Positions 10,452 to 62,730 of a stretch of 64,000 nucleotides of DNA are shown one piece after another. Source of the stretch: Candidatus Cloacimonadales bacterium (GTDB lineage: Bacteria; Cloacimonadota; Cloacimonadia; Cloacimonadales; DAONDQ01). The DNA lies in contig OY759316.1 in the NCBI GenBank assembly GCA_963662275.1, forward strand, positions 2,176,001 through 2,240,000, read 5' to 3'. A program made the translations under genes and the position numbers. Under the pieces are notes generated by a model. It did no database searches. It was not told the DNA's origin and saw only the letters and a list, made by a program, of their open reading frames with translations. How positions within the stretch are numbered: position 1 is the stretch's first letter; the number at the start of each line of letters is the position of its first letter.

Positions 10452-10540
10452 GTCGTCCCGATGGGACTTTCATCTCTTGTGGTCGCTCGTCACCGGATTG
10501 AAATCCGGTGTTAATATGTTTCTTCCCGATGGGAATGAAA
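10452..10540 (-). repeat. REP-like family A (cccatcggga hairpin + cacc/tggatttcaatccggtg palindrome)
   Basis: Near-identical to the units at 62552-62730 and to the intron target site at 34977/37105. Confidence 0.8.
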
Positions 10541-34264: not shown

Positions 34265-34770
34265 GCGACCTCCATTACTTCCTATTGGATAATATATCTC
34301 TATGATATGAAAACTATATCTATTCGATATAATCAATAAAGACAATAACTAAAATCCTTTCTCAAAATCGAGGCTACGTCTACAATCTGCATAACTCGAT
34401 TCAGTTGAAATACCTGGACCAGAAAGTAAATTGCAAATATTATACCAAATATGCTTGATGACTGATCATCCCTAAATGTCACATGGCTTCTGCAAAGCAA
34501 GCGGTTTCCGAGTGATCATTATGCTTATGTGCTAAAGAGCTGCCAGATCCAGGAAGAGTTCACTAAAATAGGTCATATTTTCAGACATTGCCTCAAGTAT
34601 TTAAAGATAAATATACCAATGTAACAATGTGAGAAGTCTTTCTGTGTATATTAGGAGGTAATACTTTTCGTTACAAACTTACTTCTTTCCGCAGAGTCTA
34701 ATTCTTCATTCTTAATTCTTTGAACTCCCCCAATCTTAAATCTAAAATGAACTACTTTCCCATTGCCATA

Positions 34771-34836
34771 CCATTACGGTAGCATTACGGTAAAAAACCG
34801 TAATGCTACCGTAATGCTACCGTATAGGTACCGTAG
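34771..34836. repeat. 11-bp tandem/inverted repeat element
   Basis: cattacggtagcattacggtaaaaaaccgtaatgctaccgtaatg; matches 10644-10712. Confidence 0.75.
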
Positions 34837-34909
34837 TGCGCATTAGTTGTACCTGTCGTCCGTACTGAACTTCTTTTCCAATCTTGCTTTTTGCAATTTT
34901 CTCCAAATC

Positions 34910-34992
34910 CTGTAAGGATGAAAGATATTAACACCTGATTTCAATCAGGTTATATGCCTTGTCCCCTTTCTAAATCCCATCGGGATGAAAGA
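34910..34992 (+). repeat. REP-like family A units left of the intron
   Basis: gatgaaagatattaacacctgatttcaatcagg and cccatcgggatgaaaga. Confidence 0.75.
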
Positions 34993-37104
34993 ATCGAGTA
35001 GGGTGATGCTGGATAATTAATCCCAGCATCATCCCTCTCACAGAACCGTGCGTACGGGTCTCGTACACGGCTCCTGATAATCTTTGTAATTACTCGCAGT
35101 AATTAAATAAAACACTTGTCTGAAGCGATGTCAGATCAAACAACTTCAGTCCTTCAAACCACTTGTTCGGCAAGGCAAAGTTTAGGTGGAAGCTCAGGGA
35201 GTTACGCCATCTGGTCATGGATAGTTTTGGACATTCTCCTTTGAAGCCTTATCTCCGTAATGCTTTATGGAACGCTTTCCAGCTTTTCCATTCACGCATC
35301 TTCTTCATCCGAAGCCTCCTTCGTATCCATTCCATCAGGCTCTCAAAGATGCTCTTACAGCTTGCAGCCCTGAAATAGTTACCCCATCCTCTTAGTATAG
35401 GATTCAGGTTTTCTATTATCATGGCTATGGGTATGCCACTGTTGCGGGGAGTAAGTTTTCGTATCTTATCCTTGAAGCGTTTCAAACGTTCCCTGTCGAT
35501 ACAGACACGCTTACCTTTGATGTTAAATCCAAGATAACTGACCCCGCTGCTGATACTGCTGATATGAGTCTTTTCCAGATTGACTTGCAGGCGAAGTTCT
35601 TCAAGTATCGCTGTCGCTATCTTTTGATATTGCTCTGCCTTTTTCCTGGTCGGAGCAAATATCAGGATGTCATCAGCATAACGTACTATCCTGATATTCC
35701 GCTGTTTCATCTTCTGGTCGAACTCATCCAGATAGATATTCATCAATAAGGGTGAGATTACTCCACCTTGCGGACTGCCTATCTCAGTAGCTTTGAAATC
35801 CCCATCGACCATTACTCCTGATTTGAGAAAACGGCTGATTAATCTCAGCAATGTACCATCACTGATTTTCCTGTTCAGACGGCTCAATATCCGTTCGTGG
35901 TCTAAGGTGTCAAAACATTTGGATAAGTCCATATCCACGGCATAACCCAAATTGTAAGCTGTAAGAAAACGCTGGGCTTTTGCTACGGCATGCTGGCAAG
36001 ACCGATGCGGTCTGTAACCATAACTGGACGGATGGAAGTCAGGCTCAAATATCGGTTGTATGATATTCAGGATTGCCTGCTGCACTACTCTGTCTCTTAC
36101 CGTTGGAATGCCAAGCGGTCTCATTTTGCCATTGGGTTTGGGTATCTCTACCCGCCTTACAGGTGATGGCTCGTAAGTACCTGCCATTAGTTCGTCGTGA
36201 AGTTGGTTGATGTTCACTGCCAGTTGTTCGTCAAAGTTTGCTATACTCTGCCCATCAATGCCTGATGCACCTTTATTTCGTTTTACCGAAGTGAAGGAAG
36301 CATACAGGTTGGGCAGGGAGTACACCTTGTCGATTAAGCTGTAGTATTTTCTCATGACATTTCCTGTCTCATTGTGATTCGTCTTGAGGTGTTCATCGAT
36401 GATGATTGTCTCTTCATCAGGTCGTCCTGCCTTCTTTAGCATATAGCAATATGGCAGAACTGCTAATTTTGTGCTTTGCCTGATTAATCAGTCTCGTGCG
36501 GTCGGGGTTGAAAGGAAGTTCGTCACCACTGTCAAACCGAGCCTCGAAGCATTTCAGCTCCTTCCTTCGTTTCTCACTTTTCATCGATTACTTTCCACAT
36601 TTCAAATCATGCCTTCGGATTATCTTCATCCCTTCGCATGAACTGCATCCTTTTGAGATACAGAACTCAGCATTACCGTGAATGCTGTCCCTTTTGTTTT
36701 ATCCTCCAGACTGTCACCAGCTTTCATAGGCAAAAGGTTAATCACTACTACGGAATCATCTGCCACCTGCTACCGCTTGGCTTCTCACTTGTCTTTCAAC
36801 TTGATCGAAGCTACTACCTTAAGTAGACAATAACAGGCTTCCCCAGTTAAGTTTTCCTGCCTGAATATGAAGCCATCTGTCATAATCTGTAGAGTTATCC
36901 AGCTTTCGGGCTTTCCCACTTTTAGAAAGGTTACCCACTCTACAAACCAACATCAGTTCACTTGCGCTGTGTTCCATATTCCCTCTGCGTCTTACTTCAG
37001 ACCCTGCCGTTGCCGGCAACGCCCTTGACCTCGAGTTGACTTCCCGCTGATTAGGTGTCAGGACTTCTTCCAGTCCATCGGCGCAGAAAACATTCTGGGC
37101 AAAC
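34993..37104 (-). mobile_element. Group II intron, class C
   Basis: 5' end GTTTGCCCAG at 37104; domain V GAGCCGTGTACGAGACCCGTACGCACGGTTC (~35043-35073); domain VI hairpin; 3' end CCTACTCGAT at 34993; internal RT ORF without an endonuclease domain. Confidence 0.9.
35090..36355 (-). pseudogene. ltrA: Intron-encoded reverse transcriptase/maturase with a premature stop in domain X
   Basis: LGIPTVRDR, GSPQGGVISP and YADD motifs. The TAA at 35249-35251 is followed in frame by GFKGECPKLSMTRWRNS...ALPNKWF...LFDL to a stop at 35090. Likely start MRKYYSL at 36355. Confidence 0.85.
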
Positions 37105-37300
37105 TAATAACACCTGATTTCAATCAGGTGTATAGCACGAAGATCAGCCAAAGTCCCAGCGGGACGATAGATTACTAGCCTACAAACACTACTGTCCAGT
37201 AATCTTTCGTCCCTAGAGGACTGATTTAGTTGTCGCCTTTAGTCACATATCGCCGGATTGAAATCCGAGCGTTAATATCTAACGTCAGTACCTGACTTGA
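37105..37300. repeat. REP-like family A cluster right of the intron
   Basis: cacctgatttcaatcaggtg, gtcccagcgggac and an inverted ccggattgaaatccg...ttaatatc. Confidence 0.75.
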
Positions 37301-37489: not shown

Positions 37490-38539
37490 ATGAGAGGAGA
37501 GCCAATGTTTTCTAAAATTGTTTTTAATGAATTTACGGTTTTTACAAAACTTGAAATCCCATTTTCTCCAGGCATTAATGTCTTTATTGGAGAGAATGGA
37601 ACAGGGAAAACTCACATCCTGAAAGCCCTGTATGCCTCTGCTGATATCACTACTTCAGCGATAACCCAGAGTTTCGCAGATAAGATAAACAGAGTATTTT
37701 TACCATCTGAAAGCCATATTGGGAGATTGGTTCATCGAAAGATTGGCAGAAAAAAAGGGTCAATAGAAGTATATCGTGAAGGCAATGGAAATCAGTTAAA
37801 AATCAAATTAGAAATAACAAATATGATGAAGAACTCTGATTCAGCAAAGAAAAATGGTACTGATAAGTTATGGCTAAGCAATCCGGTTGAATCAGTTTAT
37901 ATACCTGTTAAAGAAATGTTATCCAATGCTCCAGGTTTCAAATCTGAATATGAGAATAAAAAGCTCGCTTTTGAAGAGATTTATCCGGATATAATCAGTA
38001 GAGCATTGCGTCCTGTAACAAGAGGTACTGCAGATCAAACAAAAAAGCAGCTAACTAAAATTCTTCAAAAGGCTATTGACGGCAATGTACTAACGAAAGG
38101 TGAAGAGTTCTTTTTGAAAAACAAGCAGGGAAATCTTGAATTCACTCTATTGGCTGAAGGGTTCAGAAAACTTGGATTGTTATCTATTCTTATCCAGAAT
38201 GGTACTCTAGCAAGCGGTTCTGTATTATTTTGGGATGAGCCTGAAACCAATCTTAATCCAAAGCTAATTAAAACTGTCATTGAGATTCTGATAAAACTAC
38301 AGCAAATGGGCATGCAAATCTTCATTTCGACGCATAATTACGTTGTCCTGAAATGGTTTAACCTGCTTTCTCAAAAAGAGGATAAGATATTATACCATTC
38401 GTTATTTCGGGAAGACAATGAGATTAAGATTCACACTACAGATAATTATGATTTAATCTCTCCGAATGCCATCGATGAAGTCTTTGGCGATATCATTGAT
38501 GAGGAAATCACAAAAGATATGGGGAATGCAGGAAAATGA
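37490..38539 (+). CDS. ABC/AAA_21-type ATPase (defence-associated)
   Basis: Walker A GENGTGKT, signature LAEGFRK, Walker B LFWDEPE, H-loop STHN. Confidence 0.85.
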   Translation: MRGEPMFSKIVFNEFTVFTKLEIPFSPGINVFIGENGTGKTHILKALYASADITTSAITQSFADKINRVFLPSESHIGRLVHRKIGRKKGSIEVYREGNGNQLKIKLEITNMMKNSDSAKKNGTDKLWLSNPVESVYIPVKEMLSNAPGFKSEYENKKLAFEEIYPDIISRALRPVTRGTADQTKKQLTKILQKAIDGNVLTKGEEFFLKNKQGNLEFTLLAEGFRKLGLLSILIQNGTLASGSVLFWDEPETNLNPKLIKTVIEILIKLQQMGMQIFISTHNYVVLKWFNLLSQKEDKILYHSLFREDNEIKIHTTDNYDLISPNAIDEVFGDIIDEEITKDMGNAGK

Positions 38540-62551: not shown

Positions 62552-62730
62552 CCCATCGGGAAGAAAGATACTAACACTGGATTTCAATCTGGTGATTTAT
62601 CCTGAAATGCTGTACCATTCCCGTAGGGAAGAAACATATTAACACTGGATTTTAATCTGGTGATTTATCCTGAAATGCTGTACCATTCCCATAGGGAAGA
62701 AACATATTAACACTGGATTTTAATCCGGTG
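62552..62730 (+). repeat. REP-like family A, three 68-bp tandem units
   Basis: Units start at 62552, 62620 and 62688: ccc(a/g)t(c/a)gggaagaaa.ata.taacactggattt.aatc.ggtg. Confidence 0.9.

Follow-up and report, generated by a model that had tools for sequence, protein, structure and literature searches.

A probable terminator-homing group IIC intron inside a REP-like unit of a Candidatus Cloacimonadales genome

A group II intron of 2,112 nucleotides (nt) was studied in a 64,000-nt stretch of the genome of a Candidatus Cloacimonadales bacterium (assembly GCA_963662275.1, contig OY759316.1, positions 2,176,001 to 2,240,000). The whole stretch is called the window, and its own numbering is used unless host genome coordinates are named. 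The intron occupies positions 34993–37104 on the minus strand and cuts into a repeat unit that resembles a repetitive extragenic palindrome (REP). A sequence-only reading of the window had proposed that the multicopy REP-like family serves this intron as a safe-harbor target. Our analysis points elsewhere. The intron is most probably a class C (IIC) intron of the terminator-homing lineage, and its copy in the window is an ectopic insertion into a REP-like unit that mimics a terminator; we assign this reading a probability of about 0.85. It is built on the observed intron anatomy, the census of intron copies, their target sites, the covariation between intron and exon in the first target pairing, and a nonsense codon in the window copy.

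The census of intron copies carries the argument. In this genome, a single contig of 4.38 Mb, there are 11 full-length copies of the intron (family 1). Ten of them follow ten different GC-rich hairpins that are succeeded by a T-run and have DNA folding energies of −8.9 to −15.9 kcal/mol; only one copy of the 11, that of the window, lies in a REP-like unit. Six of the ten terminator-site copies are found 44–74 nt after a co-oriented open reading frame (ORF) of at least 90 amino acids, and two more are found 39–41 nt after the genes for tRNA-His and tRNA-Ser. The tail that follows the folded stem is 0–6 nt long in 11/11 copies, and the first nucleotide of the 3′ exon (+1) is T in every one of them. 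No sequence upstream of the hairpins is shared across the 11 sites, and therefore there is no second intron-binding site (IBS2). Relatives with 68–78% nucleotide identity occur in two genomes of the same order (G026 and G038). Eight of their nine sites consist of a hairpin and a T-run, the ninth is ambiguous in this respect, and none of the nine lies in a repeat. These data do not bear out the safe-harbor proposal. All ten of the other copies in the genome stand behind unrelated terminators, which is the outcome that the sequence-only reading had set beforehand as speaking against its own idea.

The orientation of the copies was compared with the direction of replication. The cumulative GC skew is lowest near 4.16 Mb, marking the origin, and highest near 1.86–2.2 Mb, marking the terminus. 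All 11 copies are co-directional with replication. At 2.21 Mb, however, the window copy sits on the terminus plateau, which leaves ten clear cases and one ambiguous one. This orientation agrees with an intron that lacks an endonuclease and inserts into the lagging-strand template.

The boundaries of the window copy are exact. On the minus strand the intron begins at 37104 with GTTTGCCC (GUUUG in the RNA) and ends at 34993 with CTACTCGAT, also written as CCTACTCGAT (CGAU in the RNA), and both ends are identical in 11/11 copies. The 5′ exon ends in CACCTGATTGAAATCAGGTG followed by TTATTA, and the 3′ exon opens with TCTTTCATCCCGATGGGAT. A scripted join of the two exons is identical at 40 of 47 positions to the consensus of 36 other units of the same type in the genome. 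The mean similarity from unit to unit is 39.1/47, so the restored junction is as good as that of an ordinary unit. Moving either boundary by 1–2 nt lowers the match to 26–32/47. The boundaries are confirmed because the restored junction fits the consensus and the shifted ones do not. The sequence-only placement of the intron within a REP-like palindrome is therefore correct, and excision restores the unit exactly at both boundaries. The insertion point had been placed 6 nt past the hairpin; this is exact for the stem as first drawn and shrinks to 5 nt when one more A-T pair is included in the stem.

Two structural models recognize the intron RNA. The core of domain I (36852–37019, minus strand) matches Rfam RF02001 (group-II-D1D4-3) with 45.5 bits, a gathering score of 32 and an E value of 5.7e-06 for the whole window. 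Domains V and VI (34993–35075, minus strand) match RF00029 with 39.3 bits, where the gathering score is 40. Domain V (35040–35074) is the same in 11/11 copies, and no position between intron nt 2023 and 2082 varies. RF02001 and RF00029 carry no intron-class label.

The class is indicated by the reverse transcriptase (RT). The RT/maturase reading frame (35093–36442, minus strand) has 449 codons in the sibling copies and is interrupted in the window copy. A domain scan of the remaining ORF, 35249–36442 on the minus strand, identified RVT_1 and GIIM and no HNH or other endonuclease (En) domain, and the 449-residue full-length sibling gave the same result. The nearest solved structures are the GsI-IIC RT (PDB 6AR1; 1.3e-84) and the E. 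rectale IIC RT (PDB 7UIM/7UIN; 8.3e-84), compared to 1.5e-48 for IIB and 2.3e-47 for IIA (LtrA); the class is thus assigned by match to solved structures. Further features of a class C intron were also seen, namely the lack of an En domain, insertion after a hairpin, a short pairing between exon-binding site 1 (EBS1) and IBS1, and no EBS2–IBS2 pairing. On the strength of the IIC-like RT without endonuclease, the hairpin-adjacent insertion and the short IBS1, the original assignment to class C stands. A plasmid search with the family 1 RT found its best relatives, 51–54% identical, in marine Gammaproteobacteria and Desulfotalea, and a 42.6% identical protein in Klebsiella plasmids; as these matches carry no class labels, they speak neither for nor against IIC-attC membership.

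Covariation identifies the intron residues that read the target. The EBS1 sequence 5′-UAAA(A)-3′ spans intron nt 181–185 (36920–36924, minus strand) and lies in a domain I loop for which the RF02001 consensus gives 'aaaa'. The seven copies that have A or G at exon position −1 carry U at intron nt 181, and the four copies that have T there carry A, so that 11/11 covary. Among the relatives, six of the seven sites with G at this intron position have C or T at −1, and both sites with A have T. With the relatives included, 19 of 20 sites are consistent with pairing between nt 181 and exon −1, and nt 181–184(5) are therefore EBS1. The IBS1 of the window site, ATTA (37108–37105), makes three of four pairs with UAAA, compared to two of four for AATA, the consensus tail of the REP-like units.

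The target unit is an unusual member of its repeat family. Read on the minus strand, it has an upstream small hairpin, GTCCCGCTGGGAC, at 37153–37165, a module that recurs in other units. The central hairpin follows at 37111–37130 with a perfect stem (CACCTGAT TGAA ATCAGGTG), a DNA folding energy of −8.0 kcal/mol and a terminator-like rating in the consensus scan. Next comes the tail TTATTA (37105–37110), whose last four nucleotides are IBS1. The remainder of the unit lies beyond the intron at 34974–34992 and consists of T (IBS3), CTTTC and the small hairpin ATCCCGATGGGAT. The term REP-like refers solely to the short palindromic, multicopy and extragenic character of the units and is used without reference to a RAYT gene. 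A loose census of the genome counted 96 units with four types of central hairpin (A1, 38; A2, 20; B, 31; C, 7), and small hairpins of the CCC/GGG type border each central hairpin. ORFs of at least 150 amino acids make up 83% of the genome, and 94 of the 96 units lie outside them. The orientation of the units relative to replication is unbiased (43/96). A perfect stem is present in 3–4 of the 38 A1 units, and about 30 of the 38 carry a C•A mismatch on the intron strand. The tail and +1 nucleotide TTATTA/T occur in three of the 38, and the two others of these have a C•A mismatch in the stem. The perfect stem and TTATTA/T are combined in the target unit only. Its hairpin is the weakest of the 11 insertion sites. 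There is no co-oriented gene upstream of the target unit; the flanking genes are divergent, and the unit therefore terminates nothing upstream.

Other units of the repeat are present in the window, as had been claimed. The hairpin core was found at four places (six strand matches with at most 3 mismatches), compared to none in 100 shuffles of the window. The census by type consensus counts seven units with central hairpins at 10491, 34932, 37111, 37251, 62575, 62643 and 62711, and one of the seven is occupied. The neighboring empty unit at 34906–34951 (minus strand) shares the rare CCTGAT/ATCAGG stem variant with the target and is its 67-nt tandem partner once the intron is removed. An empty A1 unit with a perfect stem and the tail TTAATA lies at 10452–10540 (plus strand). 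An empty A2 unit at 37209–37296 (plus strand) has its central hairpin at 37251–37271, followed by TTA and then by A at +1. Three empty A1 units stand in tandem at 62552–62730 (minus strand) with central hairpins at 62575–62594, 62643–62662 and 62711–62730. The statement that the window holds several empty sites is right in that six units are empty, but these would be poor targets: they have TTAATA or TTAGTA tails, or A or G at +1, and 2/4 IBS1 pairs.

The window copy has diverged from its siblings and has lost an intact RT. It differs from them at 97–117 of 2,112 positions, compared to 0–61 differences between siblings. An in-frame TAA replaces codon 398 (35246–35248, minus strand), which is CAA (Gln) in 10/10 siblings, and removes the last 52 residues of the RT. 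The ratio of nonsynonymous to synonymous substitution rates (dN/dS) of the window copy is 0.17–0.20, and it is 0.21 in the tail behind the TAA. These values indicate that the copy diverged as a working lineage. The sequence suggests that the window copy is probably no longer autonomous and would need the RTs of its siblings, which are 93–95% identical, for splicing.

The observations that favor a dedicated REP target are the precise placement of one copy within a unit and the abundance of 96 units, nearly all of them outside long ORFs. Against it, ten of 11 copies are behind unrelated terminators and 0/9 relative sites in other genomes are in a repeat. Moreover, UAAA pairs with half of the consensus tail, and about 30 of the 38 A1 stems are mismatched on the intron strand. 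We consider this explanation highly improbable. A narrower version holds that the window sublineage alone turned REP-specific and that the window copy is its last survivor. The copy is indeed a clear outlier (97–117 differences), and its divergence under selection (dN/dS 0.17–0.20) speaks for an independently active sublineage. However, its EBS1 sequence UAAA, and indeed the whole EBS1 loop, is the same as in six siblings that reside at terminators, the genome holds no second copy of the sublineage, and none of the other 38 A1 units resembles a terminator as closely as the chosen one. We judge this version very unlikely.

The sequence-only reading had also pointed to protein motifs that seemed to resemble the IIC-attC lineage, and the REP-like units could then be regarded as attC-like recombination sites. 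Apart from that motif resemblance, the idea has in its favor that both kinds of target are structured single-strand hairpins. The insertion sites point away from it. Their consensus is TTTW/T after T-run terminators, compared to TTGT/T within attC as given in PMC7923331, and an attC target with TTGT/T was found at 0/11 sites. The sites lie downstream of co-oriented genes rather than antisense to cassettes, and no cassette array adjoins the window copy. Judged by its target sites, an IIC-attC affiliation of the intron is not supported, and we consider this explanation highly improbable.

Several observations weigh against the terminator-homing reading that we prefer. The window sublineage has one copy, so its own target preference cannot be sampled. 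At two of the ten 'terminator' sites, the 400 nt upstream contain no ORF of 90 amino acids or more. The orientation bias is confounded, as the terminators of co-oriented genes point the same way. The RF00029 score of domains V and VI falls just below the gathering score, and the EBS3 nucleotide was not located in the intron. The search for an orthologous empty site gave none: the single genome of the same genus (G001) does not conserve the flanking genes, and in it the left flank matched only a dispersed repeat (34746–34838) and the right flank matched nothing. Among the read contigs of runs X1, X2, X4 and X5, which are broken at repeats, none skips exactly 34993–37104 and none bridges an empty site. 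The TAA-type contig, with 0 differences over 35053–35339, has depths of 19, 10.3 and 7.5 in X1, X2 and X4, and the unique flanks have depths of 17–22, 9–11 and 3–12, which makes the TAA contig single-copy; these three runs come from two studies and possibly include the source sample of the assembly, so this check of the TAA may not be independent. Contig joints that skip 2,369–2,430 nt (sides 22–25 nt) were considered as a candidate empty site and rejected, as they arise from similarity among the REP-like units.

Terminator homing, the reading we retain, implies the following course of events. We infer the mechanism of insertion, its reliance on replication and the current activity of the window copy, the mechanism by analogy with characterized IIC introns. 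The intron ribonucleoprotein would recognize a DNA stem-loop. EBS1 (4–5 nt, 5′-UAAA(A), intron nt 181–185) would pair with the U/T-rich tail past the stem and EBS3 with the T at +1. The intron would then reverse splice into the strand that serves as lagging-strand template. As the RT lacks an endonuclease domain, nascent DNA at the replication fork would act as the primer for synthesis of complementary DNA. The window copy would represent an ectopic landing in one unit of a REP-like mosaic repeat. It would have landed in that unit because the unit is a terminator mimic, with a perfect 8–9 base pair stem, the rare TTATTA/T, 3/4 IBS1 pairs and the correct IBS3. The window sublineage evolved separately under purifying selection, and its copy later gained the nonsense codon that truncates its RT. 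Mobility and splicing of the intron are predicted here from sequence data. The best reading is that the REP location of this copy is a one-off explained by the ordinary IIC target rule.

A second IIC family in the same genome, outside the window, behaves differently. The family 2 intron is 1,870 nt long, begins with GTACG (GUACG) and ends with CCCCTAT. It is present as six identical full copies and one 272-nt fragment of the 5′ end (locus labels L016, L018, L028, L034, L040 and L044). In host genome coordinates, full copies are at 924613–926482, 1449060–1450929, 1482825–1484694 and 1484835–1486704 on the plus strand and at 754289–756158 and 3829784–3831653 on the minus strand, and the fragment is at 3864934–3865205 on the minus strand. 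The RT has 443 residues, is 39% identical to the family 1 RT, and contains RVT_1 and GIIM only; its nearest solved relatives are IIC (1.1e-62 and 4.7e-61), compared to 1.9e-42 for IIB. All seven insertions (A2, two; B, four; C, one) lie 3 nt past the central hairpin of a REP-like unit, the hairpin types being present in 20, 31 and 7 copies. Two of the four B-type insertions share an array, with 140 nt between them, and are perhaps not independent events. The family 2 sites have the tail YTA/T with T at +1. There are about 41 empty units with YTA/T in the genome; the A1 units mostly have A at +1 and contain no family 2 copy. The loop homologous to the family 1 EBS1 reads CUAGCC in family 2, and its UAG pairs with CUA and, via G•U, with UUA. 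The same domain I loop thus provides EBS1 in both families, as UAG in family 2 and AAAA in family 1.

Relatives of family 2 with 61–72% amino acid identity occur in at least three other genomes, including Candidatus Cloacimonadales. In G016, 5/5 examined sites follow a hairpin present 64 times, and a control with the reversed pattern gave 0. Four sites were examined in G038 and G020, where one hairpin has 138 and 42 copies and another has 42 and 11; the reversed-pattern controls were again 0. Three named relative loci have flanks equal to those of the G020/G038 loci and were counted once. In one Candidatus Cloacimonadales record, the hairpin ahead of two relative copies is repeated in tandem a short way downstream. 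There is no T-run at the sites of the family 2 relatives. Their loops fit the local tails in G016 and G020, pairing UAG(GG) with (CC)CUA and GAG(UG) with (CA)CUC or UUC; the loop of one variant in G038 showed no pairing with the local ACC tail. We think it likely that family 2 and its relatives form a REP-homing IIC sublineage that is retargeted through a 3-nt EBS1, an analogue of the IIC-attC introns aimed at REP families. Specialization of an IIC intron on REP hairpins appears to hold for family 2 and not for the intron in the window.

The A2 unit of the window has the same 21-nt hairpin and TTA (37251–37274, plus strand) as family 2 sites elsewhere, is empty, and has A rather than T at +1. 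The A at +1 may explain why it is empty. Loose ends of read contigs at 37274 that run into the 5′ end of family 2 were set aside; other A2 units share this 24-nt hairpin and tail and may be their source, and the ends say nothing about the window site.

Tandem arrays of REP-like units with a period of 66–70 nt occur in the window (62552–62730) and at several places in the genome, for example 3137807–3137959 and 1486752–1486981. These short arrays with mutually similar 'spacers' are local duplications, not CRISPR arrays. A separate 28-bp tandem array is unrelated to the units in sequence. Loci with A1, A2, B and C units gave no Rfam match to the repeat at E values up to 0.1. A hit to Acido-Lenti-1 (21.8 bits, gathering score 37, E = 0.046) was rejected as chance. 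In the A1 consensus, CACCGGATTGAAATCCAGTG, the C•A mismatch on one strand is a G•T/G•U wobble on the other. This is a hint that selection for folding, be it as RNA or single-stranded DNA, acts on the opposite strand. A further dispersed, partly palindromic repeat lies by the REP cluster at 34746–34838; G001, the genome of the same genus, has 12 matches to it on both strands. The gene divergent from the intron (37490–38539, plus strand) encodes an AAA_21/AAA_15 ATPase of a family that is frequent in defense islands, and its Pfam description mentions AbiEii-type toxins. Outside the window, the genome carries an insertion sequence (IS) of about 1.9 kb with terminal inverted repeats and a 537-residue ORF that is a transposase by appearance. 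Its 38 ends correspond to about 19 copies, with examples at host genome positions 2930169, 3520500, 3629269, 758228 and 59439. Several of the IS ends abut REP-like units just past the tail and linker, and the units therefore attract a DNA transposon too.

These comparisons separate a single capture from a dedicated target. An IIC intron reads a hairpin plus a short tail and can therefore be captured by any REP unit that comes to resemble a terminator; one such capture is not evidence of a dedicated target. In one genome, two IIC families take their EBS1 from the same domain I loop, which reads terminator tails in family 1 and YTA tails of REP-like units in family 2. If family 2 is indeed specialized on REP, a few nucleotide changes would shift an IIC intron between classes of safe harbor. 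Its sites would also provide natural pairs of target and EBS1 for testing the IIC target rules, which are poorly defined for engineering.

Insertion of IIC introns behind terminators is textbook knowledge, and B.h.I1 of Bacillus halodurans is a terminator-homing class C intron of this kind. The window intron shares with such introns the RT similarity, the lack of an En domain, insertion a few nt past a stem-loop, an IBS1 of 3–5 nt in the T-run, IBS3 at +1 and no IBS2. It is likewise multicopy in one genome and co-oriented with replication. It differs in its 5′ end, which is GUUUG and not GUGYG, and in having one copy in a REP-like unit that terminates no upstream gene; otherwise nothing essential separates them. 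Insertion of IIC introns after rho-independent terminators is described in PMC12584367, citing Robart 2007 and Mohr 2018. A minority of copies in REP elements has a precedent in the group II intron of Pseudomonas putida KT2440, for which 2/9 copies are in REP elements (Tobes and Pareja 2006, PMC1525189), compared to 1/11 here. The organism and the REP family are different, and PMC1525189 gives the count only, whereas here a reason can be offered in the terminator mimic with its 3/4 IBS1 pairs. No account of a REP-specialized IIC lineage came up in the literature text covered, which leaves out most subscription journals; the 2/9 count was the single related data point. PMC1525189 also lists ISPpu9, ISPpu10, ISPa11 and ISPsy8 as REP-targeting insertion sequences. 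Their copies lie in REP units, as do several ends of the 1.9-kb IS of this genome; unlike the introns, which are retroelements, the listed elements are DNA transposons. Family 2 finds its closest analogue in the IIC-attC group, which, according to PMC7923331, inserts into the bottom strand of integron attC sites with the consensus TTGT/T and antisense to the cassettes. That group is an IIC sublineage specialized on a multicopy structured DNA hairpin, as family 2 appears to be. The targets in this genome are not attC, have no TTGT/T and adjoin no cassette arrays, and the window intron targets terminators. If the specialization of family 2 is true, REP arrays would join attC sites as structured-DNA niches for retroelements.

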